Shown piece by piece: positions 32,596-50,119 of a DNA stretch of 64,000 nt. The stretch's first letter is position 1, and each line of letters begins with the position of its first letter. The notes under the pieces were generated by a model. It was not told the DNA's origin, made no database searches, and was given only the letters and a program-made list of their open reading frames with translations. Made by a program: the position numbers and the translations under genes. The stretch is from a candidate division FCPU426 bacterium (lineage in GTDB: Bacteria > Oederibacteriota > Muellerivitia > Muellerivitales > Muellerivitaceae), in NCBI GenBank assembly GCA_963771075.1, contig CAVYSE010000007.1:64001-128000 (forward strand), given 5' to 3'.

Positions 32596-33179
32596 AAAGG
32601 TTAGTTCTAGCCACTCAAAACCGGAACAAATTCAAGGAAATGGCTGATGCGCTCCGATTAACCGGATGGGAAATATTCCCCGCTTGGGAGTTTCCCGGAG
32701 CCCCCGAAGTGGAAGAAGATGGCGAAACGCTTGAAGCTAATTCCTTGAAAAAGGCTAGAGCTTTATGTACTTTTACCGGACTTACCGCTCTTTCAGATGA
32801 TACGGGCCTTTTTGTGAAAGCGCTGGATGGGCGACCGGGAATCTATGCGGCTCGTTACGCGGGAGAAGGGTGTACCTATGAGGACAATGTTCGGAAAATG
32901 CTTGCGGAAATGGCGAAAGTACCATGGGATCAAAGACAAGCCTCTTTCCGAACCGCGATAACCCTCTTTTACCCAGACCGGCCTTTTGTTCAAGTTTGGG
33001 GTGAGGTGACGGGTTTCATTACCTTGGCGCCAAGGGGTGATAAGGGTTTTGGATATGACCCCATTTTCCAACCGGATGGCCTTGACAGGGTCTTTGCCGA
33101 AATGACATTGGAAGCGAAGAACCAAATGAGTCATCGGGGCAAGGCTTTGCAAGCAGCCCGGAAAATATTGAATTCCTAG
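32592..33179 (+). CDS. rdgB: Non-canonical purine NTP pyrophosphatase (RdgB/HAM1)
   Basis: [28 protein letters not shown]; follows rph. Confidence 0.95.
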
Positions 33180-33264
33180 AAAAGCCACTCTCCTGTAAAA
33201 TCGACCAGCAAAAATGTTGTACACTTGCATCGGGATTAAAGGGCGTCCATTTGAGTAGTTTGGC

Positions 33265-33339
33265 CGGGGCGTAGCGCAGCGGTAGCGCACTTGGTTTGGG
33301 ACCAAGGGGCCGTGAGTTCGAATCTCACCGCCCCGACCA
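33265..33339 (+). tRNA. tRNA-Pro(TGG)
   Basis: Cloverleaf, anticodon arm CTTGG-TTTGGGA-CCAAG, GTTCGAAT, CCA end. Confidence 0.95.
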
Positions 33340-33430
33340 AAAAATTCAATAGCTTATATGCAGGGAATATTACCACCTTGGTTTTTTTGAATTTCAGTGT
33401 TTGATAGCCTTTAAACCACTCATTCCATTT

Positions 33431-33507
<77 letters not shown>

Positions 33508-33522
33508 TATTTTTCAACGGTT

Positions 33523-34638
33523 TTACAACTTCACTTCTTGGCCGGCACCCGTCCGTGTCATATCCGTGTCAAACTGCCTCTCAACCTGTAGTAGTGCGTT
33601 CACCCGGTCCTTCCGGTCGATCCGGTTATACCGTTTGAACATGGCGTAGGTCTTATGGCCCGATATGGACATGATGACCGAGTCGCTTACCCCCGCCTTT
33701 CTTAGATTCGTCACCGCGCAATGCCTGAGATCGTGGAACTTAAAATTTCCGATCCCCACCATGCGGCACGCCCTCAAAAAGGCGGACTTGACGCTTTGCA
33801 TGCGCTTTCCCCTATGGGTGAAGACATAAGGGCTTCCAAGGGTCTTAGGGGTCCGTTTCAGGAGGTCTAACAAGCTCTCCGTCAAAGGGACTTCCCGTTT
33901 CTCCTGGGTCTTGGTGTCCGCGGCTTCCAGATTGATGACTTTGTTTTGAAAGTCCACCTGTTCCCACCGCAAACTCAAAATTTCCCCCTTCCTCATACCC
34001 GTCCAATAAGCCAATTGGACTATGGCACTCAGTCGGGGCGCGCAATAACCCAAGAGCGCCTCGTATTCTTCCGGCGTCAAGGTGCGGTCGCGGGATTCTT
34101 CCCGGAAGGGCCGTACCCTTTGGATCGGGTTTTTCTCAATCAAATCATTGAGGACCGCCCGATTCACGATAGCCTTGAGAGTCCCAAGGTCCCGGTTCAG
34201 TGTAGCGTTGGATAACGCCTTTCCGTTACGGCCTTGATTTAAGGCTTGGTTTCCGGCCTTCTTCCGTTGGGTTAAAAAGCCTTCCACAATGTCCGGCGTT
34301 AAGCTTCTCAAGGGTCTGTCACCGAAATAAGCCCTGAGCCGCTCGACCATCTGGATATCGTTCTGGTGGCTTTTCCTTCTTGCCTCGGAATAAGCCAGGA
34401 ACGAATCCGCCGCTTCGTTGAAGGTGACTTCCGGCTTTTCCACGGCCAAGAACTTTCCCGCCACCATTTCTTGCATGTGTTGGGCCAGTATCTTTTTGGC
34501 TTGGGCAACCGGTATTACACCCAATCGAACCCGCTTGCGCTTCTTCAATCCTCCCTCATCGATAAAGTAATCCAGGAAATACCCCTTTTCGTCCTTACGG
34601 AGAAATTGGGGCAATCCATGAACATTAGGTCTACTCAT
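33523..34638 (-). CDS. Tyrosine recombinase / integrase (element 1)
   Basis: TGMRKGE (R), TKT (K), FHDLRH (HxxR), SGHKT (H), RYN (Y); AGGAGG RBS. Confidence 0.96.
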   Translation of the reverse strand: MSRPNVHGLPQFLRKDEKGYFLDYFIDEGGLKKRKRVRLGVIPVAQAKKILAQHMQEMVAGKFLAVEKPEVTFNEAADSFLAYSEARRKSHQNDIQMVERLRAYFGDRPLRSLTPDIVEGFLTQRKKAGNQALNQGRNGKALSNATLNRDLGTLKAIVNRAVLNDLIEKNPIQRVRPFREESRDRTLTPEEYEALLGYCAPRLSAIVQLAYWTGMRKGEILSLRWEQVDFQNKVINLEAADTKTQEKREVPLTESLLDLLKRTPKTLGSPYVFTHRGKRMQSVKSAFLRACRMVGIGNFKFHDLRHCAVTNLRKAGVSDSVIMSISGHKTYAMFKRYNRIDRKDRVNALLQVERQFDTDMTRTGAGQEVKL

Positions 34639-34889
34639 GCGTCCCTCCTAATGTCCCCAGCACTTGGCATTTTATAATCAGAGTCCGCCCAAGATGGAAG
34701 GGGTTTTTTAAAAACTTGAAGAAACACCGAATACCAAACCCTCGGATACTTACCAACCTTCACAAAGGGAAGGGCACCGGTCTGCCGCCAATAGCGGACG
34801 GTATTGGGGGAAACACCGGCTTTTTCGGCAATGTCTTTGTCCGACATTAAAAAATTCCGCCGTTCGACATTTTTCCTACGATCTACCAT
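34635..34889 (-). CDS. Excisionase-like HTH protein (MerR/HTH_17 type)
   Basis: MSDKDIAEKAGVSPNTVRYWRQTGALPFVKVG pattern; overlaps the int start; GGAGG RBS. Confidence 0.82.
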   Translation of the reverse strand: MVDRRKNVERRNFLMSDKDIAEKAGVSPNTVRYWRQTGALPFVKVGKYPRVWYSVFLQVFKKPLPSWADSDYKMPSAGDIRRDA

Positions 34890-35200
34890 GGCCTACCTCC
34901 CTTTTTAAAAATTTTAAATAAACGACCCTCCAAAGAATTCTCTTTGGAGGGTCGAAAATTGGGTTGTGAAGCGTTCAAGGTTTGGGGGATTCTCCGGGCT
35001 GATTGACTTGGAATTTTGTTTTCGGTTGTCGAAGCGGAACAACTTGCGAGGGCGAAATCTTCGGGGCAGTAATCGCCCTTTAAATGCAAAATCTGAAATT
35101 CGTTTTTGGGGGTCATCCGTCACCGCCGTATTTTGTGATATTTATTTTGACTGTCTTAAGCGCCTAAACGTTTCATCAAAAAGAAATAATTATTTTGAAA

Positions 35201-35305
35201 TGTCACTGACCGTCACTTACTGCCGCTAACTGCCACTTGTGATCGGCAGTGATCTTTTGTGAGCATTCTCCGTGACCATCGTTAACCATGGATTGCCATG
35301 GATTG
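35201..35305. repeat. 10-bp phased direct repeats in the divergent control region (element 1)
   Basis: TGTCACTGAC/CGTCACTTAC/TGCCGCTAAC/TGCCACTTGT, then CGTGACCATC/GTTAACCATG/GATTGCCATG; conserved at 45871-45975. Confidence 0.7.
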
Positions 35306-35355
35306 GACGCAATAGATTTTTATGACACTTAAAATTTTTGGGAGCGAAAGGAGAA

Positions 35356-35571
35356 ATGAATCGTCCAAAAGGCATGAAAACAATTTCTGGAGGGAGCTAT
35401 GGGCCACTACCTGGAAATCAACGATACCGAAGCCCAGCACCTCGCCTGGATTCACTCCAACAAGTTCACCATCCCAGAGCTTTTCCAAAAGAAGTTTTAT
35501 CCCCAAGGCACCTATCGAAATACCTGTTACGTCCTCAGCAAATACGTCAAAAAAGGGTTCCTGCTTTTTGA
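35356..35571 (+). CDS. Leader ORF starting MNRPKGMKTIS (element 1), overlapping the rep-like gene out of frame
   Basis: AAGGAG RBS; first 11 codons conserved with the element 2 copy by synonymous changes only. Confidence 0.5.
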   Translation: MNRPKGMKTISGGSYGPLPGNQRYRSPAPRLDSLQQVHHPRAFPKEVLSPRHLSKYLLRPQQIRQKRVPAF

Positions 35572-36202
35572 AAAGGAAAATATGTTCGCGCATAACTTTT
35601 ATTTCCTGACCCTTCCGGCCATCCGCACCCTGGACGAGACAGGGCGGATGATCGTCATGGGCCGGAAGCACACCATCCGAATCAACCCCTATGAGCGACA
35701 GCATGACCTTATGGTCCAGGAGTTAAGAATCACCTTGGAGGCCACCCCCACCCTGGAAGACATCTTTTGGGTGAGTGACTTCGAAATGCGGGCAGGTATC
35801 ACCCCGCGAACAAAGGCCGAGTTCCTCAATGGGGAGCTGGAAAGAAACTGGCGGGTTAGGGCCTACGAAAGGGCAAAGTCCTTGGTCCGTAGGACGCCGG
35901 ACGGATACTTTGAAGCCGACTTCCAGGGGGAGAGACGGGCCTTTGTCCTGGAATTCGAGCGGACGGCCTATAACTGGAACATGGTCAAACGGATGGTCTA
36001 TAACTTGGACGACGCCTTTCCCAACGCCTGGCGGCTTGTTGTCTCGGAAACCTACCCCCATGCCTGGCGGATGATCCGCAACCTCCAAGCCTGGGTCATG
36101 GAAAGGGATCGGTCCAAGTGGTTGGTAAGCGACTTCGGCAGGGTAACGACCCGCCCATTCGAGAAAGTCTGGTTCCAGATCAGCAATCCTCTGCCGGAAT
36201 AA
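35399..36202 (+). CDS. Replication-relaxation (Replic_Relax-like) protein: wHTH + PD-(D/E)XK domain (element 1)
   Basis: N-terminal wHTH-like segment, QHDL motif, RRTPDGYF...FVLEFERT nuclease motif; GGAGG RBS. Confidence 0.7.
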   Translation: MGHYLEINDTEAQHLAWIHSNKFTIPELFQKKFYPQGTYRNTCYVLSKYVKKGFLLFEKENMFAHNFYFLTLPAIRTLDETGRMIVMGRKHTIRINPYERQHDLMVQELRITLEATPTLEDIFWVSDFEMRAGITPRTKAEFLNGELERNWRVRAYERAKSLVRRTPDGYFEADFQGERRAFVLEFERTAYNWNMVKRMVYNLDDAFPNAWRLVVSETYPHAWRMIRNLQAWVMERDRSKWLVSDFGRVTTRPFEKVWFQISNPLPE

Positions 36203-36210
36203 CACCCCGT

Positions 36211-36435
36211 TGGCCGTGGAAAAAATGTCCTACGGTCTTTCATTCGGACGGAACTACAAATTTTAATCTTTCGGCTTTTTTAGGGGTGTTTTCCCATGCT
36301 CCGATGGCGAGCCCCCCTATCTCTGCATCAAGTACGGATGCGAGAAACGATAGGGGGGCTCGCCCTCTCCGCATGGGAAAACCAGGAGACGTTATTTTTA
36401 AAAACAAGGATGAGACAAATTCAAATTAAAATCAG
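36211..36435 (+). ncRNA. Candidate structured ncRNA or ssDNA origin hairpin (element 1)
   Basis: Long stem 36288-36382 with compensatory changes versus 46966-47058. Confidence 0.55.
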
Positions 36436-36708
36436 ATTCAAGAGCAAGGCAAGGCAAACCGGAGCAGTATCCAGAGGTGGCAGGTTGGGATTGGAGTGGT
36501 GGGTGCAGGTTAGCGTGGTAGGTGGGTAAGACAAAGGCAGGGTAAGGGAAGTGGTAGTTTGGGATAGTTGGTAGGTTGTTGGTTATAGCTGTTTTAAACA
36601 GGGGTTAATCCTTCCTGATAACGTGGTTTTGGTTTTAAGGGGTGTTAATCTTAGGAACGACAAATTATGGTTCTTGTGGGTATAATGGTTTTCTAAAGGG
36701 GCAACAAT

Positions 36709-37032
36709 ATGCAGGGAACAGATTCAAAATTGACTGAAATCGTGAACCGCTTGGCGGAGGCTTATCACCCCGAGCGGATTTATCTTTTCGGTTCCACGGC
36801 TAGGGGCGACCAAGGCCCGGACAGCGATTTTGATTTAATGGTCGTAGTCCCTGATAACGCCCCGTCCCCCCTGCGCCGAAGCCGTTTGGCCTATGAGAGG
36901 CTTTGGGGTACGGGAACTGCGGCAGATGTTTTGGTTTGGACCCATACCGCCTTTGAAAGCCGGAAGGCCGTAATAGCCTCTTTACCCGCCACGATTCTCC
37001 GGGAAGGCCGTCTGCTTTATGGGGCCGCTTGA
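36709..37032 (+). CDS. Minimal nucleotidyltransferase (MNT) antitoxin-like protein
   Basis: LFGSTARGDQGPDSDFDL (GS-x10-DxD). Confidence 0.9.
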   Translation: MQGTDSKLTEIVNRLAEAYHPERIYLFGSTARGDQGPDSDFDLMVVVPDNAPSPLRRSRLAYERLWGTGTAADVLVWTHTAFESRKAVIASLPATILREGRLLYGAA

Positions 37033-37438
37033 AGCAGACCGCGCCGCTGAAACCAGGGCTTGGCTACATAAAGCCGCCCAAGACTTAAGGGGCGCTGAAA
37101 TTGACCGCCAAGCTGACCCTCCCTTTTTGGAAGACGTTTTGTTTCACTCCCAACAATCAGCCGAAAAATCTTTGAAGGCGTTCTTGTGCTGGCATGACCA
37201 ACCTTTCCGCAAAACCCATAACTTAGTTGAACTAGGAGAGCCTTGCGCCAAAGTGGACAGCACATTGGAACCCATCCTCCGAAAAGCCGCCGTCTTAACC
37301 GAATATGCTTGGAAATTTCGATATCCGGGAGACGTTGAAGTAATTGAAACGAAAGAAGCTGATGAGGCAATGGGTTTGGCCCGCCAGGTATTCGATGCGG
37401 TAAAGTTGCGGCTTCCGAAAGAAAGCCATCCAACATGA
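37019..37438 (+). CDS. HEPN-domain protein
   Basis: W..KA..DL, FHSQQSAEKSLKA, KTHNL, RYP; overlaps the MNT gene. Confidence 0.9.
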   Translation: MGPLEADRAAETRAWLHKAAQDLRGAEIDRQADPPFLEDVLFHSQQSAEKSLKAFLCWHDQPFRKTHNLVELGEPCAKVDSTLEPILRKAAVLTEYAWKFRYPGDVEVIETKEADEAMGLARQVFDAVKLRLPKESHPT

Positions 37439-37492
37439 GGATCGAAGTCGTCCTTTTTTGATGGAAGGTTCAGCTCAAACGGGGTGGATTTG

Positions 37493-37699
37493 TCACTCGA
37501 AAAAATTTTTTATGTCGATTTCAAAATGGTTGGCAAGTTTTTCAAGAAGGCGAACGGTGGGGTTTAACTTACCGGCTAAAAGACGGGATATTGTGGATTT
37601 CGCTACCTCTGCACCAAAGGCGACCTGCTCAGCGGTTTCTCCGCGTTTTTTGAGTGTCTTTTTTATGTTTTCAACGACCCGTTCCGAAGCACTTTTCAT
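37493..37699 (-). CDS. XRE-family HTH regulator
   Basis: T.EQVAFGAEVAKSTISRLLAGKLNPTVRLLEKLA. Confidence 0.85.
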   Translation of the reverse strand: MKSASERVVENIKKTLKKRGETAEQVAFGAEVAKSTISRLLAGKLNPTVRLLEKLANHFEIDIKNFFE

Positions 37700-37763
37700 G
37701 CCCAGAGAATATATTTTTAAGTTATACTGCTAGTTGCTTATAGGAAACCTAAGAGGTGGGTCT

Positions 37764-38324
37764 ATGAAAAAACACTTGTGGCTTACGGGATTAACCTTTT
37801 CAGCGATTTTCGTTGTTTTTTTATCCTGTAATAAAATTACCACTCCGTTAGCACCTGGCTCCGGAACAAGCGCCAATAGCAGTAGCTTCATTTTGGCTTG
37901 TGGGTCAACTTTGCCTACATCAGCAAACAGTTGTTCGATAACTTTAACTTGTGGCACGGCTGTTGATTTGAGTTCCATTTTATCCGCAAATAGCACGAAT
38001 ATTTATGCTTGCGTCAACCCTTCCGGACTTCCAAAAAGCTTTAATAGTTCAAATGTTTATACGGGGTCAGCATACTGTTCAGCGCCAACAACCACATGTG
38101 CGGGACCGTCGGGATGCTCTGGCTCTTTAAATTCTTCAAACATAACCATAAATTGTGGGGACAATTTACCTTGTTCCGCAAACTCAGCTGTAATCACCAT
38201 AGCTTGTCCCACAATTACCGATTTAAGTTCGATTTCGTCGGTAAATAGCACAACCATTTACATGCACAATGCCCCTTGCAAGTTGCCTCAGAGCTTTAGC
38301 AGTAGCCATATTGTTTTGTATTAA
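37764..38324 (+). CDS. Cys/Ser-rich lipoprotein with an internal two-fold repeat
   Basis: GAGG RBS, MKKH..FLSC lipobox; two ~55-aa CG..LP.SANS...DLSSI.S.NST.IY units. Confidence 0.7.
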   Translation: MKKHLWLTGLTFSAIFVVFLSCNKITTPLAPGSGTSANSSSFILACGSTLPTSANSCSITLTCGTAVDLSSILSANSTNIYACVNPSGLPKSFNSSNVYTGSAYCSAPTTTCAGPSGCSGSLNSSNITINCGDNLPCSANSAVITIACPTITDLSSISSVNSTTIYMHNAPCKLPQSFSSSHIVLY

Positions 38325-38353
38325 TTTGGCAGATAAGCATTCAGAGGTAAATC

Positions 38354-39229
38354 ATGAAGCCTGCATTGTTTTTGGTAATTTTGGTAGTAATGGTCGTAGT
38401 TCCTGCCTTGTCGTTGGCCCAAACACCTACACCTTCTGCACCTCAATACATAGCTGATGGAAACAAATATTACGCAATAAAAGATTATTCAAAGGCTTTG
38501 TTGTATTACCAAGCGGCCACCCAGTCGGACCCAGGAAGTGCCGTGGCTTTTCAGGGACTCGGAAACGCCAATTATATGTTGGGTCAAAAGACAACAGCTC
38601 TCGCTGCCTATGAAAAAGCGATGGCTTTAGATCCCACGAATGCTCAATTGAGCAATTTCGTTCAAACGCTAAAAACTCAAAATAATGAATCTTCAAAAGT
38701 TGTTACGGCTACCCCTACCCCATCAGTCCTTCAATTTTCAAGAATTGAAATAGATTTGATGGGTGGGATTGATGAGCCAGTAAACCCAGATGGATATGCG
38801 CTAAGCTTTGGAGGGGGAGGCACATTTTACCTTTCGTTGAATCGTGCCACGGCTATTGGCATTTCTCTTTCTTTGTATTCTTTTTCATATCAAGCCTCTA
38901 GCGCCACCAGTACTGTGAATGGTATTACCACCTCTTCTCAAAGCGGGGGAGGATCGGCTACCGAGTTTGAAGGATTGGCGGTTTTCAAGTTTCGGCTGAG
39001 TACTGGAAATTTTGAACCGTACATATTGGTTGGTGCCGGATTATCAGATTACAATGATACCGTTGATGGATCGGTGCTAAATCCCGCAATTAGTGGCGGG
39101 CTTGGTTGCGAATTTAGTTTGGGGTCCGGGACAAATCTTTTTTTAGAAGGCAAAACCAACGCGATAATTGCTTCGAATACGACTATTATCCACATACCGA
39201 TGGAAGCAGGCATCAACTTTGATCTTTAA
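38354..39229 (+). CDS. TPR + outer-membrane beta-barrel protein
   Basis: Signal peptide, two TPRs (YSKALLYYQAA, GLGNANY..G...A..AYEKA), EPYILVGAG barrel strands, terminal FDL. Confidence 0.75.
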   Translation: MKPALFLVILVVMVVVPALSLAQTPTPSAPQYIADGNKYYAIKDYSKALLYYQAATQSDPGSAVAFQGLGNANYMLGQKTTALAAYEKAMALDPTNAQLSNFVQTLKTQNNESSKVVTATPTPSVLQFSRIEIDLMGGIDEPVNPDGYALSFGGGGTFYLSLNRATAIGISLSLYSFSYQASSATSTVNGITTSSQSGGGSATEFEGLAVFKFRLSTGNFEPYILVGAGLSDYNDTVDGSVLNPAISGGLGCEFSLGSGTNLFLEGKTNAIIASNTTIIHIPMEAGINFDL

Positions 39230-39364
39230 TTCCAAGCTCTTTCTGGAAAAAGCAGAAAAAAGAGGCGAGAAACGTAAGATCATTCAGGGAAGCTACGGGA
39301 AGAAATGCCAAATATTAAAAATCTTATGACGGTAAGTTTAAGAAAGTGATAAAGGAGAATTCTC

Positions 39365-39961
39365 ATGCGGCCAAGAACCCCTGTTATTTTATTATTGTTT
39401 GCGACATTGTTAAGTTTAACCTTAGCTGGTTGCAAAGATGCGGAAGTGGCCCCAATGGTTCTTCCGCAATTCAACCAATACTTCCCAGCTACAACGTTGT
39501 TTCAGGTTGATAAACGATTTCTTTGGGTACAAACCAACATAGACGGAATTAGCGCGGCGGCGGCGGAGTTGATGTTTAAGCAGGATTGCGGCCAGGCCTT
39601 GCCAGCGATACAACAAAAATCATTCGGGCTGATTAAAAATTTATCCACGGCCTTATCTATCGCCGGTAAACAGGTTTTAATTGTTGGATTTAAAAACTAT
39701 TGGGTTGTTTGGGTTGTCCGCAATGGGATTGACACCCAGGGGCTTCCTTACAACTACCAGGTCTTGAATTACCAGCAGTTCAGTAGTTGGCTTATCCAGG
39801 TTATGGGCGCTGTTCCTACACCGGACCAGATCAAGGTCGTTACTTTGGAAAACGTCCAAGCTACCCCCAAAGGCCAGCCTGTAATAGCCCCCACCTTGGC
39901 CCAGGTTCGCCAACAGGTGGCCCAACAACCCCAAGTTAACAACCCGACCTTTGCGGAATAA
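39365..39961 (+). CDS. Hypothetical lipoprotein
   Basis: AAGGAG RBS, lipobox LAGC. Confidence 0.7.
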   Translation: MRPRTPVILLLFATLLSLTLAGCKDAEVAPMVLPQFNQYFPATTLFQVDKRFLWVQTNIDGISAAAAELMFKQDCGQALPAIQQKSFGLIKNLSTALSIAGKQVLIVGFKNYWVVWVVRNGIDTQGLPYNYQVLNYQQFSSWLIQVMGAVPTPDQIKVVTLENVQATPKGQPVIAPTLAQVRQQVAQQPQVNNPTFAE

Positions 39962-40222
39962 AAATTAAATCCTTGGGTGAGCTTTTAAACGTCAGCGTGC
40001 CAATGAAGTCGGTCGGGATGTTTTCATGGGTTTCGCCGTGTCATATACGTGTCAAACTCGACCGTCAAAATCGAGTTTTGACCGTCGCCAAGTGTCCTTG
40101 ACCGTCACCAACAAAAAAAGCCTCTGCCTGCTTGGGTTGTGAAACCCTTGCAGGCAAAGGCCTTAAAAATCTGCTGGGGACTTTAAAATTTTAAAAATGT
40201 TCCAACTGTGTTGTCGAATGAA

Positions 40223-40267
40223 CTTCTAAGCAGTAGGTCCCGCGTTCGAATCGCGGCAGGCGCACCA
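40223..40267 (+). repeat. Distal att site of element 1: displaced tRNA-Arg 3' half
   Basis: CTTCTAAGCAGTAGGTCCCGCGTTCGAATCGCGGCAGGCGCACCA, lacking a 5' half. Confidence 0.9.
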
Positions 40268-40611
40268 TATTTTACTAAATCCCAGGGGCGAAGGATTACA
40301 AACGTTGTTTTGGAAAACGTCTGAAAAGTTTTCGTGAAAAAGGGCTTTTTTATCTGAGATTTTTGATGGGCTAGAGTTCTGCTAAGTTTTCTCTTCCTTT
40401 ATGAATCGTCAAATTAATCTTTACAATTGAAAGGCCAAAAATTAAACTTTTATGGCTTTTCTCCCGGACCATGTTTTCTGATGAAATCGGGAAAATAAAC
40501 TTGCTGGTGAGCCCGGTTTGGATGGGCCGCCAGCTTGTTTGTTTCTGGCCTTTTGGCCAGTTGGGGAGCGGTTGGGATTGCACCGTCCCTGACCCCGTTT
40601 CGGAAACGCAT

Positions 40612-40689
40612 GGTGGGAGTAGCTCAATTGGTTAGAGCACCAGATTGTGGATCTGGGGGTTGCGGGTTCGATTCCCGTCTCTCACCCCA
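40612..40689 (+). tRNA. tRNA-His(GTG)
   Basis: G-1, anticodon arm CCAGA-TTGTGGA-TCTGG, C73, CCA. Confidence 0.95.
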
Positions 40690-40775
40690 CTTGATCCGGC
40701 CGTCCTAACGGTCCGGGGCGTCCCGTACCGAGGTGGAGTGGTGGCTGGTTGCTCCCGCGTAAATAGTTGGAGGAT

Positions 40776-40852
40776 GCGCCTGTAGCTCAGTTGGATAGAG
40801 CGACAGATTCCGGATCTGTAGGTCAGAGGTTCGAGCCCTCTCAGGCGTACCA
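40776..40852 (+). tRNA. tRNA-Arg(CCG)
   Basis: Anticodon arm ACAGA-TTCCGGA-TCTGT, CCA. Confidence 0.95.
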
Positions 40853-40971
40853 TTTTTTTTTAAATATGGCGGACGAAGTTTGCCATCAGGTTAGAAATGG
40901 GGATGTACCGATTAGTTGGAAAGTTGTTTTCGGAAAATTGGCACATACCATTTTTCATTATGTTTGGTTTT

Positions 40972-41047
<76 letters not shown>

Positions 41048-41177
41048 TTTTTAGTTTCCTTTTGATTTTGCCGGGTTGGAATGATTCGAACCAACAAGGA
41101 ACTCCAATTATCATGATCCTCGGAATACCCACGACATCCAGATGTTGAGTACCTAAACTCAAAACGAAAGAGGCAAT

Positions 41178-43518
41178 ATGCGCTACGGATACTTTGATGT
41201 TCCAAATAAAGAGTATGTGATCGAAAGGCCCGATACACCGGTGCCTTGGATGAACTACCTGCATAATGACGAGTATTGCGCACTCATTTCCAATAACGCT
41301 GGAGGATACAGCTTTCACCTATCCGCCCGAGACAAGAGGATTTTGCGTTATCGATTAAATAATATTCCGGTGGATCGCCCAGGAAGATATATTTATGTTC
41401 GGGACGAACAAGATGGAGATTATTGGTCCGCGACTTGGCAGCCCGTCCTGAAAGACCTGTCCGACTATAAGACGGAAACACGCCATGGATTTCGGATATA
41501 CCCGCGTTACCTCCGCATATAAGGGGTTAGAAATGGAAACCCTCTATGTGGTTCCCGTGAAGGATAATTTGGAACTCTGGCATTTGACCCTAACCAACCG
41601 TACATCCAAAACCAAGACGCTCAACTTGATTTCCTATGCGGAACTTTGCCTCTTTTTCGCACAAAACGACATGATCAACTTTCAATATACCTACAACATC
41701 GCGAGATGTTTTGAAAAGAATGGGATGATTCATCATACGACGATGATCGAAAATGCCGGGCATTACGCCTTTTTCACCGCGAGCAAACCCTACACTTCCT
41801 TTGATTGCGACAGGGAAAAGTTCATGGGGCCATATCATTCGGAAGCTAACCCCCAGGCAGTTTTGGACGGAAAATGCTTCAATTCCGAAGCGAATGGTGG
41901 AAACCCGGTAGCCGCGACGTCGATCCCGGTAACACTTAAGCCTGGGGAGAGCAAATCCATTACCTATATATTAGGCGTGGCGCCCTCCATGGCGGCCGGT
42001 GCTAAATTGGCGGCCAAGTACCGTAAATCGGGAGCTGTCGAACGGGCTATGGATGAATTGAAAGAACATTGGGATGAGAAGCTGGGTTCCTTGACGGTGA
42101 ACACGCCGGATAAAGACATCAATTTATGTTTGAACCAATGGAATGCTTATCAAGTGCATACCACGTTCAGTATGTCCCGCGGCCCCTCCATTTATGAGGG
42201 TGGTATTGGACGAGGGATGGGATTCCGGGACAGCAACCAGGATGTGCTGAGCGTGATTCACAGTGTGCCTGGGAAGGTGAAAAAACTCATCACTGATTTG
42301 GCTAAGAACATGTTCAAGGACGGAACCGCGTATCACCAGTTTTTCCGGTTGACCGGCGAAGGGGACGGTAAAGGATATTCGGACGATCCGCTTTGGATCA
42401 TTCTTTCCACAACCGCATACGTCAAAGAAACAGGTGATTTCAAGTTTTTAAACGAAAAGATCGCTTGGGCCGATGGCGGGACAGCCACCATGTACGAGCA
42501 TCTTCGGGCGCCATTGGATTACACATATAAAAACGTTGGAAGCCACAAGATTCCCTGCATGGGTTTCGCTGATTGGAATGATACCCTCCAGATCAACGGA
42601 CCGAAACCAGGAGAGAGCGTTTGGGTGGCCGAGTTCCTCGTGAAATGCGCCAATGATTTCGTTGAATTGGCCGAAGCGCTGGGCAAAAAAGGGGACGCCC
42701 AAAAGTATCGCAAGATGGCAGCGGATATGGGCGCCCGTACTAATAAAGTTTGCTGGGACGGGGATTGGTACGCAATGGCTTTTGATGGATGGGGAACCAT
42801 GCTGGGTTCCAATAAGCAAAAAGACGGAAAGGTTTATTTGAACACCCAAACCTGGGCGGTCATCTCCGGGGTTGCCGATCAAAAAAGGGGCGAAGAATGC
42901 ATGGATGCGGTGCGTGAGTACCTGGATTCCAAATATGGGGTGGCCCTTATGTACCCTGGCTTTAAGCATTTCAGCCCCCGCTTGGGCGGGGTGAGTACCT
43001 TTCCCCCGGGTTTGAAGGAAAACGGTGGAATCTTCTCGCATGCCAATCCATGGGCTGTCATTGCCGAAACGATTTTAGGACGGGCGGATGTCGCGATGAA
43101 ATATTACAAGCAATTATTGCCGACAACAAAGGACCAGATCCAGGATGTGCACAAAGCGGAACCCTATATCTATGCCCAGGCCATCGCTTCTAGGGAACAC
43201 CGTGACTTCGGATTTGCGAGAAATTCCTGGTTGACCGGAGCTGCTTCCTGGAACTATGTGGCAGCCACTCAATATATATTGGGTATTCGGCCGACCTACT
43301 CGGGGCTCCGGGTGGATCCTTGTATACCAAAGGACTGGAAAGAGTATCAGGTGACTCGATTGTTCCGTGGAGTGGAATACCACATTCGAGTGAAGAACCC
43401 CAGACACATCAGTAAGGGTGTCGCTTTTATGACCGTGAATGGCAAGAAGTTTGATGGAAACGTCATTCCGGCGCAAAAGTCGAGCAAAAAAATCGAGGTT
43501 GAGGTTGTGCTGGGTTAA
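41178..43518 (+). pseudogene. GH94 glycoside phosphorylase (cellobiose/chitobiose phosphorylase-like), split by a +1 frameshift
   Basis: MRYGYFD...PW.NYL N-terminus, GRGMGFRDSNQD, DWND, ENGGIF.H. Removing one T at 41490-41492 restores RHGFGYT. Confidence 0.85.
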
Positions 43519-43541
43519 TTGGATTTAAGCATCTTAAATGG

Positions 43542-43574
43542 ACCAAGCCCTAACAAACGTTAGGGCTTGGTTTT
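43542..43574 (+). terminator. Rho-independent terminator
   Basis: ACCAAGCCCTAAC-AAAC-GTTAGGGCTTGGT then TTT. Confidence 0.8.
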
Positions 43575-43692
43575 CATCAAAATAGTGTGGAACGGGCCGT
43601 GAAAAGAGCCGTTTTAGGTTTCGTTGACAGCCCTCAAACAGCATGCTATAAGAAGCTTGCTTAAGCTTCGGCGAGGGAAGAAGGAGCCACGC

Positions 43693-43974
43693 TTGGTCGC
43701 CATCATGACGTTGAAAGTCGCCGCAAAAAGCAACCCCTCCACCGTGGCAGGCGCCATCGCCAATAACGTAAGGGATGGAAAAGGCGTGGAAATTGTCGCC
43801 ATGGGGCCTGAAAGTATCAATAACACGGTCAAGGCTATTGCCATCGCGCGAGGTTTTTTGCGCGGGGATGGGATGGACGCTTATTTCAAACCCGAATTTA
43901 TTCATCTCACGATTGATGGAGAAAAGAAAAGCGCGATCAAGTTCATTTTGAGCGTCGAAAAGAACGAAAAGTAA
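43693..43974 (+). CDS. spoVS: SpoVS-family protein
   Basis: LKVAAKSNPSTVAGAIA, N..VKAIAIARGF; AAGGAG RBS before TTG (start uncertain). Confidence 0.88.
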   Translation: MVAIMTLKVAAKSNPSTVAGAIANNVRDGKGVEIVAMGPESINNTVKAIAIARGFLRGDGMDAYFKPEFIHLTIDGEKKSAIKFILSVEKNEK

Positions 43975-43994
43975 TACAGATGATTTCTATGTTG

Positions 43995-44023
43995 AAACCC
44001 TGGCCTTAGGACCGGGGTTTTTT
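43995..44023 (+). terminator. Rho-independent terminator
   Basis: AAACCCTGG-CCTTAGGA-CCGGGGTTT followed by Ts. Confidence 0.7.
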
Positions 44024-44029
44024 ATTTTA

Positions 44030-44106
44030 GGGCGAATAGCTCAGTTGGTTAGAGCACCTGCTTTACACGCAGGGGGTCACAGGTTCGAATCCTGTTTCGC
44101 CCACCA
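44030..44106 (+). tRNA. tRNA-Val(TAC), integration site of element 2
   Basis: Anticodon arm CCTGC-TTTACAC-GCAGG, CCA. Confidence 0.95.
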
Positions 44107-44121
44107 TATTTTTCAACGGTT

Positions 44122-45225
44122 TTACGACTTCACTTCCTGGCCGGCAAGGATCCGTGTCATATCCGTGTCAAACTGCCTCTCAACCTGTTGTAGCGCGTTC
44201 ACCCGGTCCTGCCGGTCGATCCGGTTGTACCGTCTGAACATCGCATAGGTCTTGTGGCCCGATATGGACATGATGACCGAGTCGTTCACCCCCGCCTTCC
44301 GCAAGTTGGTCACCGCGCAATGCCGGAGATCGTGGAACCGGAAGTTCTTGATCCCCGCCTTACGGACCGCTTTCCTGAAGCCGGTCTTGATGTTCTTGAT
44401 GCGCTGGCCCTTGTAGGTGAAGACATAGGGGCTTCCCAGGTTCCGGGGTGTCCGTTTCAGGAGTTTCAAAAGCCCCTCCGTCAATGGCACCTCCCGCTTC
44501 TCCTGGGTCTTGGTGTCCGCGGCTTCCAGGGTGACGACCTTGTTTTGGAAGTCCACCTGTTCCCACCGCAGGCCCAAAATCTCCCCCCGCCGCATTCCCG
44601 TCCAATAAGCCAGCTGGACGATTGCGGAAAGGCGCGGGGAACAAAACCCCAAGAGGCTTTGGAATTCCTCAAGCGTCAAGGTGCGGTCCCGTGATTCTTC
44701 CCGGAAGGCCCGAACCTTTTGAATCGGGTTTTTCTCCAACAAGCCGTTGAAGACAGCCCGGCTCATGATGCTTTTGATTACTCCAAGGTCCCGGTTCAAG
44801 GTGCAGTTGGAAAGGGGTTTTCCCCCAAAGGCAACATTGCCCGCTTTCCGCCTTTGGGTCAAATAACCCTCAACAATGTCCGGCGTTAAACTTTTCAAGG
44901 GCCTGTTACCAAAGTAACCCTTGAGCCGCTTAACCATCTGGATATCGTTCTCGTGGCTTTTCCTTCTTGCCTCGGAATAAACCAGGAACAAATCCGCCGC
45001 TTCGGTGAAGGTGACTTCCGGCTTGTCCTCGGCCAGGAACTTTTCAGCCACGATTTCCCTCGTGTGCTGGGCTAAGACCTGCTTTGCCTGGGTCAAAGGA
45101 ATGAACCCCAACCGCACTCTTTTGCGCTTTCTTATACCTCCTTCCCGGATGAAGTAATCCAGAAAATACCCCTTATCGTCCTTGCGGAGAAATTGGGGCA
45201 ATCCATGAACATTAGGTCTACTCAT
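44122..45225 (-). CDS. Tyrosine recombinase / integrase (element 2)
   Basis: All catalytic residues present; roughly 80% identical by eye to the element 1 integrase. Confidence 0.96.
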   Translation of the reverse strand: MSRPNVHGLPQFLRKDDKGYFLDYFIREGGIRKRKRVRLGFIPLTQAKQVLAQHTREIVAEKFLAEDKPEVTFTEAADLFLVYSEARRKSHENDIQMVKRLKGYFGNRPLKSLTPDIVEGYLTQRRKAGNVAFGGKPLSNCTLNRDLGVIKSIMSRAVFNGLLEKNPIQKVRAFREESRDRTLTLEEFQSLLGFCSPRLSAIVQLAYWTGMRRGEILGLRWEQVDFQNKVVTLEAADTKTQEKREVPLTEGLLKLLKRTPRNLGSPYVFTYKGQRIKNIKTGFRKAVRKAGIKNFRFHDLRHCAVTNLRKAGVNDSVIMSISGHKTYAMFRRYNRIDRQDRVNALQQVERQFDTDMTRILAGQEVKS

Positions 45226-46024
45226 GCGTCCCTCCTAATGTCCCCAGCACAAACATATTACCAGGGGCCAAGATTTTTTCAAAAGAAGTACCCAGCACAA
45301 CCGCCGAAAACGCGAAAAGTTCAATAACGCCTTCAAAGTGTTGGAAGCATGGGTTTGGGTTGTTTGATTTGGGTTTGAAGTTAGAAGTGGCTTTAATTAG
45401 TGCCGCAATATGGGCGGCCAAGCGAACCAAGAGGCCAGACCCCACTACCGTTTTCCTGGATAGGAACTTGATCCAGGGGGAGTGGGGTCTGGCGTCGCAG
45501 GTGAGAAAACAGCCGCCCATATTGCGGCTATTTCCTGAAAAAAGATGTGAGTCAGAGTCACGTTCCGCTTTAAGCAGGTTTAAGTTCCGGCTCAAGCGAG
45601 TCGTGCCTCTCTTTTGGTGGATCGTTAAATTGAGTTGTGAAGCGTTCAAGGTTTGGGGGATTCTCCGGGTTGATTGACTTGGATTTGAAAGTTCACTTGT
45701 CGAAGGGTAACAACTTGCGAGGACGAAATCTTCGGGGAAGTAATCGCCCTTTAAATGCAAAATCTGAAATCTAAAAAGTTCGTTCATCCGTCACCGCCGT
45801 GTTTTGTGATATTTATTTTGACTCTCTTGAGCGCCTAAACGTTTCTTTGAACGGAATAATTTTTTTGAATTGTCACTGACTGCCACTTACCGCCGCTAAC
45901 TGCCACTTGTGATCGGTAGTGATCGTTTATGCGCATTCTCCGTAACCATCGTTAACCATGGATTACCATGGATTGACGCAATAGATTTTTATGACACTCA
46001 AAATTTTTGGGAGCGAAAGGAGAA

Positions 46025-46078
46025 ATGAACCGTCCAAAAGGCATGAAGACAATCTCCCTGCAAGGATGCGGTCCATGA
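46025..46078 (+). CDS. 17-aa leader peptide MNRPKGMKTISLQGCGP coupled to the rep-like gene
   Basis: AAGGAG RBS; its TGA overlaps the ATG at 46075 (ATGA). Confidence 0.6.
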   Translation: MNRPKGMKTISLQGCGP

Positions 46079-46878
46079 GCCAATACCTTGAAATCAGCGA
46101 TACCGAAGCTCAGCACCTCGCCTGGATTCACTCAAACAAGTTCACCATCCCCGAGTTATTCCAAAAAAAGTTTTATCCCCAAGGCACCTACCGAAACGCT
46201 TGTTACGTTCTCAGCAAATACGTCAAAAAAGGTTTTCTGCTTTTCGACAAGCCCCACATGTTCGCGCATAACTTTTACTTCCTGACCATTCAAGCCATTC
46301 GCACCATGGACGAGACAGGGCAGATGATTGTCATGGGCCGAAAACACCCCATCCGAATCAACCCCTACGAGCGACAGCATGACCTTATGGTTCAGGAGCT
46401 AAGAATCACCTTGGAGGCCTGCCCTAGCTTGGTGGATATCTTTTGGGTCAGTGACTTCGAAATGCGGGCTGGTATCACCCCGCGAACCAAGGCCGAATTC
46501 CTTAATGGGGAGTTAGAAAGCAACTGGCGGGTGAGGGCCTATGAAAGGGCTAAGTCCTTGGTCCGAAGGACGCCGGACGGGTACTTTGAAGCCGACTTCC
46601 AGGGGGATAGGCGGGCATTTGTCCTGGAATTCGAGCGGACGGCCTACCACTGGAACATGGTCAAGCGGATGGTCTATAACCTGGACGATGCCTTTCCCCA
46701 TGCCTTGCGGCTTGTCGTCTCGGAAACCGTGCCCCATTCCAGGCGGATGATCCGCTACCTGCAAGCCTGGGTCCGGGAGAAAGACCTTTCTTGGTGGTTC
46801 GTGAGTGACTTTCAGAAGCTGACGACCCAGCCTTTCGAAGACTGCTGGTATCAAATCAACCATCCCTTGGAGCAATAG
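46075..46878 (+). CDS. Replication-relaxation (Replic_Relax-like) protein (element 2)
   Basis: 267 aa, same length and motifs as 35399-36202. Confidence 0.7.
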   Translation: MSQYLEISDTEAQHLAWIHSNKFTIPELFQKKFYPQGTYRNACYVLSKYVKKGFLLFDKPHMFAHNFYFLTIQAIRTMDETGQMIVMGRKHPIRINPYERQHDLMVQELRITLEACPSLVDIFWVSDFEMRAGITPRTKAEFLNGELESNWRVRAYERAKSLVRRTPDGYFEADFQGDRRAFVLEFERTAYHWNMVKRMVYNLDDAFPHALRLVVSETVPHSRRMIRYLQAWVREKDLSWWFVSDFQKLTTQPFEDCWYQINHPLEQ

Positions 46879-46887
46879 GGGGTTTCC

Positions 46888-47112
46888 TGGCCGTGGAAAA
46901 AATGTCCTACGGTCTTTCATTCGGACGGAACTACAAATTTTAATCTTTCGGCTTTTTTAGGGGTATTTTCCCGTGTTCCGATGGCGAGCCCCCCTATCTC
47001 TGCATCAAGTACGGATGCAAGAAACGATAGGGGGGCTCGCCCTCTCCACACGGGAAAACCAGAGGCGTTATTTTTAAAAAAAAGGATGATACAAATTCAA
47101 ATTAAAATCAGA
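46888..47112 (+). ncRNA. Candidate structured ncRNA or ssDNA origin hairpin (element 2)
   Basis: Homologue of 36211-36435 with a covarying stem. Confidence 0.55.
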
Positions 47113-47252
47113 TTCAAGAACAAGACAAAGCAAACCGGAGCAGTATTCAGAGGGGGTAGGTTGGAATGGAAGTGGTAGTGCAGTTTTGGGTGGTAGGTGG
47201 TGAAGGGGGTTGGTGTATAATCAGGGGCAGGTGAATTCTTGAAAGTGAAAAA

Positions 47253-47585
47253 ATGATTCAACTCAAAGATCGTTCAACAACAGAAGAACTTCAGGAAGTG
47301 GTTGAGAGGGTTATCGGCAGGTTTCATCCCGATAGAATCCTCCTCTATGGTTCTTTTGCTTATGGTGATCCCCGCCCGGACAGTGACTTTGATTTATTGG
47401 TGGTCTTGCCCGACCCTCCCGCCCGGCAGGTTGGATGGGAAGCGGCTCATGAAATACGCCTCAAACATCCCCTTCAATTGGTTTTCATGAAGACTGAAGT
47501 GTTCGAGGAAACCAAAGACGTTGTCGGGGGCCTTGCCTATCCCGCCAATCATTGGGGAAAAGTGCTCCATGAAAAGGCTTCGTGA
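47253..47585 (+). CDS. MNT nucleotidyltransferase
   Basis: LYGSFAYGDPRPDSDFDL. Confidence 0.9.
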   Translation: MIQLKDRSTTEELQEVVERVIGRFHPDRILLYGSFAYGDPRPDSDFDLLVVLPDPPARQVGWEAAHEIRLKHPLQLVFMKTEVFEETKDVVGGLAYPANHWGKVLHEKAS

Positions 47586-47997
47586 ACAGGTCATTTGGGA
47601 CTTTATTCAAGGCTGGCTTAAAAAAGCCGAGAGCGACCTAATCGCCGCCGAGATAACTCTAAATACAAAATCAGAAGACCATTTCATCTCCGCTTTCCAC
47701 TCCCAGCAAGCCGTTGAAAAATACCTAAAGGCTTTTCTCATTTGGCGACAGGTGCCCTATCTCAAAACCCATGAGATCAAAAAATTATTGTCTCTTTTCC
47801 CGGCGGAAGACGCGGAGCTGGTAAAGGGATTGTCTGAAGCTGATTGGTTGACGCCCTTTGGGGTTGAATTTCGTTATCCAGGCGATGAAGTTGCCGACCT
47901 GGAAACGGCAAAGAAAGCCGTGGACCAGGCAAAAAAAGTTCAGAAAATCTTCTTTGGATGCCTAAAAGATTATCTCGAAAAGGGACGACCTGGTTAG
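47569..47997 (+). CDS. HEPN-domain protein
   Basis: WLKKAESDL, FHSQQAVEKYLKA, KTHEI, FRYP. Confidence 0.9.
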   Translation: MKRLREQVIWDFIQGWLKKAESDLIAAEITLNTKSEDHFISAFHSQQAVEKYLKAFLIWRQVPYLKTHEIKKLLSLFPAEDAELVKGLSEADWLTPFGVEFRYPGDEVADLETAKKAVDQAKKVQKIFFGCLKDYLEKGRPG

Positions 47998-48004
47998 GGG
48001 AAAT

Positions 48005-48667
48005 TTGTTGCCTACTCAAAAATGTTACACGGAAAAAGAGCTTATAAAAGAGTTGAAAAAATTTAAGCCTAAATGGAAAAAATGGTTTAACTTTCACCGA
48101 TTGTGGGAACAGGATAGTGAAATAGAAAAGTTTATCCGCCATGCCGTTGACGGGAGTACATTCAGAGCTTTTCGCGGAGTTAAAAACCCAGCAATAAAAT
48201 TTAGAATTTGGGCGAAAAAGTATTTGACCGACAAGCGTTTAGAAGAACTTCGTAAAATAAAAAGTCAAACCGAATATTCTGAATGGCTAAACGATATGAG
48301 AAAACACTTGCAAGGCCATTGGAAAGCCAAAAAGAAAATGGATTACGGCCATGCCATGAAACTCTCAAACCTATTGGTAAAGCAACTTTGTTGTTCAAAA
48401 AGGGAAATACCGCAAAAAACGTTCAATGAAATAATCGAGTTCATCGAGGTGCCGCTTGATAAATATTCTCTTCAAGCCATAGCCAATTGTAAAAAATATT
48501 TGCCGGAAGACGTCAAGATTAAAGGAACTGATGCGATGGGTTATATAAAAAACGATAAGAAAAAGTACAAAAAAATTCAGGATGGTATTCGAATGCTTAT
48601 CAATGAAAATAAAGTAAAAGTGCCTCCAATTGCTTTCGATTTATTCGTTTGGAACCATGCCCATTAA
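48005..48667 (+). CDS. Basic, Lys-rich hypothetical protein (AT-rich cargo)
   Basis: 220-aa ORF; motifs YGHAMKLSNLLVK, EVPLD, FDLFVW. Confidence 0.7.
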   Translation: MLPTQKCYTEKELIKELKKFKPKWKKWFNFHRLWEQDSEIEKFIRHAVDGSTFRAFRGVKNPAIKFRIWAKKYLTDKRLEELRKIKSQTEYSEWLNDMRKHLQGHWKAKKKMDYGHAMKLSNLLVKQLCCSKREIPQKTFNEIIEFIEVPLDKYSLQAIANCKKYLPEDVKIKGTDAMGYIKNDKKKYKKIQDGIRMLINENKVKVPPIAFDLFVWNHAH

Positions 48668-48706
48668 GGTCCAATAAAGAACATTATGAAAAGAAACGGA
48701 GGAAAA

Positions 48707-49603
48707 ATGAATAAAGTATTATTTGTATTATTGGCACTTGGACTAAGTGGCCCATTGATGGCAAATGACAAAATTGTGGTACAGATTAATAACGATATAT
48801 CCATGGAGAACTATAAAAAAGACCTCTACTTAGCGATGCATTTTTACAAATTGAAAAATTTTAAGGAAGTTTTAAAAGAACTTAAGAAATTTGAAAAGGA
48901 TACGGCTGTTGAAAATCCTTCGCCAAGTGGACAAGCGACTTATTCATACATCCTTTATCGAGTAACGATGTACCAAGCCCAAATGGCACAAAAACAAGGG
49001 AATAAAATTTTGTATTTGGAGTGTAAGGATAAAGCTAGAGATCTATTAGACAGGATTCAAAATATTAGTGATGTGAATGACGAAAGGGTTAATCAAGCAC
49101 TTGGACCTGGGCACGGCGGAGCTATCCTAGTTGCGATAGATGAAATAAAACCTTATTTTGATTGTTACGATAGTAACGAAAGAAATTGTGATGATTACTT
49201 TGTTCAACCGATTGCTACTCCAACCCCTGAAATGATACCCGTGACTGTATCCGTCGAGTTGTCGCCAAAAGCCACTCCGGTAATAAATATGGGTTATTAT
49301 GAATATAAAAATCCCCCGGGTTTGCAAGTAACGATGAATTGGAACCCGATTCTTGAAAGCACAAATGCCGCAACTACGGTAATTTATCTTCCTAAGGGAA
49401 GCGGAAAGCGTTTTCAGATTGAGGAAGAATTTCCTAAAGATGAAAATGCATCATTTACCCTAGTGATTTCTCAACCTGGATCAGAATCCGTAACAAGTCA
49501 TGGAGTTGATTGTAGTGCTGGTCTTGGTTGTCGCCGGGCAATGATAGACGTTAGAGCGGGAGAAAATATTTCAAATATGTTAAGTGAATCCAGCGGAAAT
49601 TAA
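48707..49603 (+). CDS. Secreted hypothetical protein (helical N-domain, TPT linker, beta C-domain)
   Basis: GGAGG RBS, MNKVLF signal peptide. Confidence 0.7.
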   Translation: MNKVLFVLLALGLSGPLMANDKIVVQINNDISMENYKKDLYLAMHFYKLKNFKEVLKELKKFEKDTAVENPSPSGQATYSYILYRVTMYQAQMAQKQGNKILYLECKDKARDLLDRIQNISDVNDERVNQALGPGHGGAILVAIDEIKPYFDCYDSNERNCDDYFVQPIATPTPEMIPVTVSVELSPKATPVINMGYYEYKNPPGLQVTMNWNPILESTNAATTVIYLPKGSGKRFQIEEEFPKDENASFTLVISQPGSESVTSHGVDCSAGLGCRRAMIDVRAGENISNMLSESSGN

Positions 49604-49935
49604 ACTGTAGGATCAATCGGTGTCATATACGTGTCAAATTTGGACTCACTGAATGAATTGCAGGCAGTCTTTTTTACGACCCCCTCCATGAAATGCAGGG
49701 GCTTACAAGGCACAGGCGGTAAAAATTAGTCGTTCTGCCGTGTCATATACGTGTCAAACTTAACCATGCTTTACGATGCTTGACCATCACTTACCGCCGT
49801 TTACCGCCACTTCAAAAAAAGAGCCCTTGCCGCTCAGGTCGTAAAACCGTTGCAGGCAAAGGCCCTTGAAACTGTGCTGGGGACTGTGAATTTTTAAACT
49901 CGCTCTAAAAGAGCGTCCAAATATGGTTTCGGTGA

Positions 49936-49981
49936 TTTACACGCAGGGGGTCACAGGTTCGAATCCTGTTTCGCCCACCAT
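49936..49981 (+). repeat. Distal att site of element 2: tRNA-Val 3' half duplicate
   Basis: Identical to 44062-44107. Confidence 0.95.
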
Positions 49982-50119
49982 TTTTGATAATGATTAGACA
50001 TTTTTTTCTTACAAAAATATAACCGCTCGCCGACAACTGTTTGCCAGGACTTACTTGTATTTTTGGGCTTTTTGGTTAAAATTCTCTCCCTGTTAAAAAG
50101 AGTCGTTGGTTTTTGAATT

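Follow-up and report, generated by a model that had tools for sequence, protein, structure and literature searches.

MOBC relaxases are described as PD-(D/E)XK enzymes whose N-terminal part is a winged helix and which carry a DEE motif (PMC5714925, PMC6736028, PMC12857230). For CloDF13 the nick is quoted as GGGTG/GTCGGG in PMC5935869, and our repeat analysis of this known origin found an imperfect inverted repeat of 134 nt whose 3' arm contains the nic position. The origin of pTEF1 contains a 142-nt imperfect inverted repeat adjoining five 12-nt direct repeats, and the five direct repeats bound by TraX lie 70-120 bp from its nick (PMC12857230). The latter report treats as an open question how MOBC relaxases, for which no covalent intermediate is detectable, deliver and re-circularise DNA. 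In MOBC ICEs, oriT is located between the relaxase and the MPF operon (bioRxiv 10.64898/2026.01.13.699239). In general, oriTs usually lie upstream of the relaxase, and a downstream position is described as atypical (bioRxiv 10.1101/2024.01.30.577996). IMEs with a MOBC relaxase and islands with only an origin are categories already described (PMC5704250; bioRxiv 10.64898/2026.01.13.699239), and the kind of element treated here is therefore known.

The window, i.e. the whole 64,000-nt stretch of DNA that was analysed, carries two tRNA-integrated islands of ~6.8 kb (element 1) and ~5.9 kb (element 2). Each island consists of a tRNA gene, a tyrosine integrase gene, a gene for a 267-aa protein, a hairpin, MNT-HEPN cargo, and a repeat of the tRNA 3' end; element 1 has in addition an excisionase-like gene before the 267-aa gene. 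The first-pass annotation had offered an oriT as one of several alternatives for the hairpin. Judged by the T4CP/T4SS context, the MOBC-type relaxase, and the architecture of known origins, this is the best explanation: the hairpin is most likely the MOBC-type oriT of mobilisable elements that borrow the transfer machinery of an ICE. The genes and ends of the islands are as follows.

33431..33507, + strand: tRNA-Arg(TCT), attL of element 1 (tRNA prediction and repeat)
33523..34638, - strand: tyrosine integrase of element 1 (PF00589, E 4.8e-32)
34635..34889, - strand: excisionase-like HTH protein, element 1 only (PF12728 HTH_17 at cut-off; PHROG excisionase matches)
35399..36202, + strand: predicted relaxase P0001, MOBC/Replic_Relax-type (fold, motif, and family matches)
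36709..37438, + strand: MNT-HEPN toxin-antitoxin-type cargo of element 1 (PF01909, PF05168)
40220..40273, + strand: attR of element 1, imperfect tRNA-Arg 3' repeat
44030..44106, + strand: tRNA-Val(TAC), attL of element 2
44122..45225, - strand: tyrosine integrase of element 2 (PF00589, E 6.1e-33)
46075..46878, + strand: predicted relaxase of element 2, 85% identical to P0001
47253..47997, + strand: MNT-HEPN cargo of element 2
49933..49985, + strand: attR of element 2, tRNA-Val 3' repeat with 3 mismatches in 54

Both islands have the composition of an IME, with integrase, att duplication, and relaxase present and no MPF inside. A search for T4CP or VirB4 within the 64-kb window gave no match. 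Near both island ends, a 23-nt repeat, CCGTGTCATAT(C/A)CGTGTCAAACT, was found at 33553, 40036, 44152, 49618, and 49738; it likely represents integrase arm sites. Repeats with a 10-nt period plus a TTAACCATG motif lie upstream of both relaxase genes (35197-35300 and 45867-45970) and recur at 49760-49812 near attR of element 2. On the - strand, a terminator-like 14-bp hairpin with a T-tract (34923-34954) stands just upstream of the excisionase-like gene. A third hairpin of the window type occurs at G000:C18:217143-218570 (L074) behind a truncated relaxase remnant and adjoining a tRNA-Glu. No integrase was matched in the fetched stretch of this locus, which is probably a decayed island.

The gene in front of the hairpin had been called rep-like. 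On the basis of sequence and a structural model, its product is better read as a predicted MOBC/Replic_Relax-type relaxase. P0001 has 267 aa and was modelled as an N-terminal winged helix followed by a C-terminal restriction-enzyme-like domain (pLDDT 91.5), the second domain carrying a D-x16-E-x-E motif; both domains are those of MOBC enzymes. Residues 6-85 aligned to MarR (Z 10.2, rmsd 2.3, 76 aligned). Residues 98-267, taken from the full-length model, aligned to SdaI with a middling Z of 8.4 (rmsd 4.5, 131 aligned), and comparison of the C-terminal part with N.BspD6I gave a Z of 8.9 (rmsd 5.5, 162 aligned). Foldseek with the model yielded no match at E <= 0.001, and its best rows were FokI. 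H102, D168, E185, and E187 were invariant in 37/37 homologues, and the three acidic residues also in 54/54 in a further count.

P0001 gave no match in Pfam or NCBIfam, nothing convincing in PHROG, and nothing in sequence searches of the PDB. No relatives were found in viral contigs, and neither a protein nor a DNA relative in the PLSDB plasmids. PF13814 (Replic_Relax) matched 4/37 close homologues (best E 7.9e-6) and 4/21 distant ones, of which one, P0090, exceeded the cut-off (28.3 bits, compared with 28.5 for the pTEF1 MOBC relaxase). In the Atlas search, 23/30 matches were PF13814 clusters (score 0.95), in which 17-54% of the members carry PF13814. A family profile compared by hhalign with the pTEF1 relaxase was collinear over 192 columns, a weak match (probability 16.5%, E 0.0015), and P0001 alone or a narrow alignment gave no significant match to that relaxase.

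The first-pass annotation had reported a covarying hairpin in two copies behind this gene, and most of its description was borne out. Both copies are present, each preceded by an identical stretch that extends over 77 consecutive nt from 36211 and 46888 (~76 had been given). The long stem, noted as ~95 nt, corresponds to a 93-nt large inverted repeat, and this repeat and its twin ranked as the top two inverted repeats within 33000-51000. Its features and those of the flanks are listed below.

36237..36255, no strand assigned: short inverted repeat, copy 1 (6-7-6, T-N11-A core), candidate protein-binding site
36289..36381, no strand assigned: large imperfect inverted repeat, candidate oriT/nic region, copy 1 (fold, repeats, covariation)
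36289-36299/36371-36381: outer stem of copy 1, followed by an internal loop
36306-36321/36349-36364: invariant 16-bp central stem of copy 1
36324-36329/36337-36342: tip stem of copy 1
36395..36560 (approximate boundaries), + strand: C-poor purine tract 3' of the hairpin, weak 6/12-nt periodicity
46914..46932, no strand assigned: short inverted repeat, copy 2
46966..47058, no strand assigned: large inverted repeat, copy 2 (identity and repeat search)

Between the copies, compensatory changes at two outer-stem pairs (A-T to G-C and C-G to T-A), the invariance of the 16-bp central stem, and the G/A difference at the tip were all found as noted. The additional 5' hairpin and outer AT helix that had been proposed are weak, since each was only ~83% paired in 16 close homologues and part of the 5' hairpin is missing in L003. 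Relative to shuffled sequences, the fold reached z values of -5.6 on the + strand and -4.8 on the - strand as RNA, and -8.3 to -9.7 as DNA. In the 16 close homologues 98% of the outer-stem cells were paired, with 6/11 pairs altered on both sides. Covariation in a wider alignment, a check that the annotation had named, was strong across 41 homologous hairpins: the 18-pair core was 97.6% paired, 9/18 pairs were altered on both sides, 0/500 shuffles scored as high, and slid controls gave 43-56%, where the cell counts overstate independence because the hairpins are kin and the stem is conserved. A selected structure is thus supported by covariation across homologues. The conserved motifs are the internal loop CGA/TCT and the tip ATCA, next to a tip pair that alternates between T-A and T·G. 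CCCC/GGGG and the loop motifs are invariant across relaxases that are ~31-40% identical. All 7 hairpin copies of the window genome sit inside these mobile elements. In L021 and L022 the internal loops are near-perfected, which suggests template switching by arm-to-arm copying; such copying may be the source of some of the double changes.

The short inverted repeat is centred ~60 nt away from the central stem on its 5' side, at a fixed offset in both hairpin types. Its mean symmetry was 4.2-5.0 of 6, compared with a background of 1.4-1.6. In the window only 3/6 positions are complementary, so that a protein site is a better fit than a stem; each half nonetheless matches halves in other copies. 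A PWM of the palindrome had 915 matches in the genome; it is therefore too degenerate to name its binding protein. For the tract 3' of the hairpin, the periodicity was 0.39 at lag 6 and 0.36 at lag 12 against 0.31 after shuffling, with 9% C, and it is possibly a degenerate direct-repeat binding site. This weakly periodic tract and the short palindrome are all that was seen here in the way of a counterpart to the direct repeats of TraX. The first 21 nt of the conserved segment (36215-36235) and the start of the excisionase-like gene (34860-34880) are 81% identical in inverted orientation, a likeness that may be due to chance or to a common binding site.

The genomic context was then compared across relatives at 104 loci, 87 after removal of duplicates. 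Only loci with 600 nt or more of upstream sequence entered the count of VirD4-like genes, and only loci with 260 nt or more of downstream sequence the count of hairpins. A VirD4-like gene lay directly upstream of the homologue at 31/32 loci with 42-56% identity and at 21/22 loci below 42%; in total 52/54 informative loci below 60% identity had this arrangement, compared with 0/16 in the window's clade (60% or more). The directly upstream VirD4-like gene typical of MOBC relaxases is thus a property of the family that is absent in the window's own clade. In the window genome, all 3 T4CP genes precede a homologue. A relaxase homologue was present in 21/30 genomes of the same family and the hairpin, searched for with model R1, in 23/30, with both in 20; R1 had 0 matches in 30 more distant genomes.

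The hairpin had been placed directly downstream of the gene. This holds for the window clade, where it follows the relaxase within 200 nt at 16/16 loci, and the same was seen at 21/24 distant loci. In the middle, ICE-type class it is adjacent at only 5/36 loci, and elsewhere it persists without the gene. Hand pairing linked thirteen middle-class relaxases each to a hairpin that shares its contig but is not adjacent; all of these hairpins were on the same strand, 4.6-45.9 kb downstream. One contig had a further copy upstream. For ~10 other ICE-type relaxases, no hairpin was present on their own contig among the matches listed, and some of these genes are near contig ends. The locus shows what is expected of an oriT, an intergenic large imperfect inverted repeat linked to a relaxase module. 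A quick relaxase tree (74 rows, fragments and duplicates dropped) was used descriptively only; stem type follows relaxase clade loosely, as GGCGAG also occurs with L049/L051 and GGCGAA with L087.

A complete ICE of 65 kb, bounded by a 45-bp tRNA-Thr repeat, was found in a relative (G004:C4 131794-197258). Its order is T4CP, relaxase, cargo, umuDC, hairpin, ArdC, defence cargo, VirB6-like, VirB4-like, xis, and integrase. The window genome has a syntenic ICE, a candidate helper, which is split over contigs C2 (T4CP) and C3 (VirB4) and whose ends are a 46-bp tRNA-Asp repeat on the two contigs. The relaxase of this ICE is split into two ORFs. ICE-type relaxase genes appear to be split into two frames, at different places, in five genomes (G000:C2, G014:C7, G021:C97, G025:C51, and G018:C40), either by decay or by assembly error. 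The cargo of the complete ICE (L165:13512-19514, L166, L167) includes SRAP, umuDC, ArdC, two WYL proteins, an FtsZ/tubulin-like protein, a patatin and DncV-like pair, and HamA with a helicase.

Hairpins also stand beside integrases in islands with no relaxase (L144 twice, L145, L146, and L158). At the tRNA cluster of G027 equivalent to that of the window (L144), there are two islands, each with an integrase and a back-to-back pair of hairpins, the first of type B and the second of type A. L145 is a sibling of element 2, with 93% identity over the type-B hairpin region and 87% over the cargo, and L146 and L158 are similar. The relaxase-less islands carry GGCGAA stems as the ICEs do, and not the GGCGAG of the window clade. 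Element 2 itself contains a second, divergent hairpin that was absent from the first-pass annotation.

45402..45525, - strand: type-B hairpin of element 2 (central stem 45434-45493)

This hairpin scored 89.9 bits with R1, whose training set included the sequence, and its stem kind follows the T4CP-relaxase on contig C27 of the window genome. It occupies the place of the excisionase-like gene of element 1, an arrangement also seen in L066. At type-B loci (L071, L016, L056, and others) a second conserved hairpin, GGAAAACCCC...GGGGTTTTCC, follows the relaxase stop at ~230-290 nt, with the type-B origin on one side of it and the xis-integrase genes on the other. A group II intron-like element, which starts with GTGTGC and has an RT ORF read by eye, was found at L001:8976-11065 and L152:8201-8492. 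It is inserted at the same position, in the outer-stem 3' arm, of two different hairpins, and a 77% identical relative has at least 11 copies in the window genome.

The strongest rival to an oriT, improbable in our assessment, is a replication origin (dso or single-strand origin) that maintains the circle after excision and is initiated by the Replic_Relax protein, so that the hairpin would be not, or not only, an oriT. PMC3424549 gives PF13814 a part in the replication and relaxation of plasmids. The missing coupling gene of the window clade and the better folding of the - strand (see below) point the same way, and so does the intron that two copies carry in their 3' arm, a feature in keeping with a hairpin that is exposed in ssDNA. 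However, the protein family is tied to VirD4-like genes at nearly all other informative loci and sits in complete ICEs, and the islands that lack the protein keep ICE-type hairpins, which is worthwhile only if a helper acts on them. The dso/sso alternative of the earlier annotation fits less well than oriT, with the qualification that replication and transfer roles are not mutually exclusive.

The annotation had also proposed an ncRNA partner of the nuclease, and had taken the change from G·U to Watson-Crick at the tip as favouring the + strand. The latter fails in the wider set, where the minus strand usually folds better: it was the more stable strand in 68/78 hairpins as RNA and in 76/78 as DNA. 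Among the 1248 cells of the central stem in these 78 distinct hairpins, 1218 were Watson-Crick, 3 G·T, and 27 other, whereas G·U made up 36/998 pairs in the 46 tRNAs of the window genome; in the 18-pair core of the 41 hairpins it was found in 1/737 cells. Outer-stem mismatches read on the + strand were A·C in 22 cases versus G·T in 8. Neither copy matched Rfam up to E 1, a library from which undescribed families are absent, and Rfam returned tRNAs and chance matches only. Promoter and terminator prediction called nothing at 36289-36381 on either strand, and there is no U-tract. Neither the G·U-tolerant covariation favouring one transcribed strand that marks an ncRNA nor the short GC stem and U-tract of an intrinsic terminator was thus found. 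In metatranscriptome contigs of relatives from 4 runs, which cannot show the level or the absence of a hairpin transcript, the depth in the hairpin bins was 1.28/0/0/0 and 0/0.3/0/0, and the integrase bins were covered.

A structured ncRNA acting as partner or guide of the nuclease would account for the strong covariation, the conserved loop and tip motifs with their T-A/T·G alternation, and the constant + orientation behind the gene. Against it stand the near absence of G·U, the usually stabler minus strand, the lack of a promoter or terminator consensus at the site and of a variable guide segment, the back-to-back divergent copies beside integrases in gene-less islands, and an architecture that is the same as that of experimentally mapped DNA origins. 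We consider the ncRNA highly improbable; the hairpin is most likely a DNA site, and covarying intergenic hairpins need not be RNAs. Least probable of all is a stabiliser or terminator of the relaxase mRNA or a REP-like repeat kept by arm-to-arm copying, since the position directly behind the stop codon in the window and distant clades and the near-perfected loops of L021 and L022 are outweighed by the absent U-tract and terminator call, by hairpins kilobases from the gene and in gene-less islands, by motifs invariant across divergent relaxases, and by the confinement of all window-genome copies to these elements.

For the oriT, what was observed are the element boundaries, the gene content, the family, the covariation, and, in relatives, the joint occurrence with genes for coupling protein and T4SS. 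The course of events is tentative. The element would first be excised, and the adjacent MOBC-type relaxase would then bind near the hairpin, at the short palindrome ~60 nt 5' and/or the periodic tract 3'. It would nick one strand within the extruded inverted repeat and be handed to a coupling protein and T4SS that a same-family ICE supplies in trans. Relaxase-less islands with the same hairpins would be nicked in trans. The order in which genes enter, with the relaxase last, serves as a pointer to the transferred strand. Gene order, with the relaxase last and ArdC first on the 3' side, suggests that the + strand is nicked; folding energy suggests the - strand. Several observations run against the oriT: the site is downstream of the relaxase, 31/36 ICE-type loci have no adjacent hairpin and ~10 ICE-type relaxases have none on their contig among the matches listed, the window clade has no coupling protein of its own, and the ICE relaxase of the window genome is split. 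The missing family matches of P0001, the weak profile match to the pTEF1 relaxase, the kinship of the hairpins with possible arm-to-arm copying, and the comparison with known origins given below also weigh against it.

A more far-reaching joint reading is rather unlikely as a whole. In it, fold-back would replace the covalent relaxase-DNA link, which is not known to exist for MOBC enzymes: the nick would lie inside the perfectly paired central stem, and the ssDNA ends would re-pair after transfer and be sealable. A few stem letters (GGCGAG, GGCGAA, GGCGAC, and GCCAGA) would form a specificity code that each relaxase clade reads in its own way, and an island with a back-to-back pair of hairpins would carry the keys to two distinct helpers.

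The 3' arm of the hairpin was also compared with the 11-mer around the CloDF13 nic. The resemblance is attractive by eye, with 7-9/11 matches, and fails the permutation test: it gave 7.57 matches versus 7.14 ± 0.48, and 19.5% of composition-preserving permutations were as high. Model R1 matched neither CloDF13 nor pTEF1. The architecture therefore matches known MOBC origins and the sequence does not, so that any assignment of the nick position and strand is tentative. In the literature searched, a scope outside of which lie subscription papers and bioRxiv supplements (e.g. oriT family tables), this hairpin family is not described. The first pass of bioRxiv 10.64898/2026.01.13.699239 takes the intergenic region upstream of the relaxase, and a downstream oriT would escape such an upstream-only pass; oriTs downstream of the relaxase can thus be overlooked.

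Compared with pAD1/pTEF1, where TraX acts with oriT2, the likeness extends to a ~260-aa relaxase with wHTH and PD-(D/E)XK domains, D..ExE motif, and fringe PF13814 score (PMC12857230), a VirD4-like gene upstream, a large imperfect inverted repeat, and repeats at a distance from it. In contrast, the inverted repeat of pAD1/pTEF1 lies between coupling gene and relaxase and here downstream of the relaxase, by up to 45.9 kb; moreover, pTEF1 is a plasmid without DNA similarity to the window elements, which are integrative. CloDF13 mobB-mobC shares the order of coupling gene then MOBC relaxase and a nic within a large inverted repeat, but has its own coupling protein, which the window elements lack. 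With IMEs the window islands share an integrase and relaxase without a T4SS (PMC5704250), and the relaxase-less islands resemble iOriT islands, which consist of integrase and oriT only (bioRxiv 10.64898/2026.01.13.699239). One bacterial family thus provides a natural series from full ICE over coupling-protein-plus-relaxase island and relaxase-only island, as in the window, to origin-only islands with one or two origins. The hairpin variants are ready substrates and specificity pairs for the question of MOBC delivery and re-circularisation. Unlike canonical IMEs and iOriT islands, these elements carry a candidate new oriT family with deep covariation, belong to an uncultured lineage, and can hold two different back-to-back origins in a single island.
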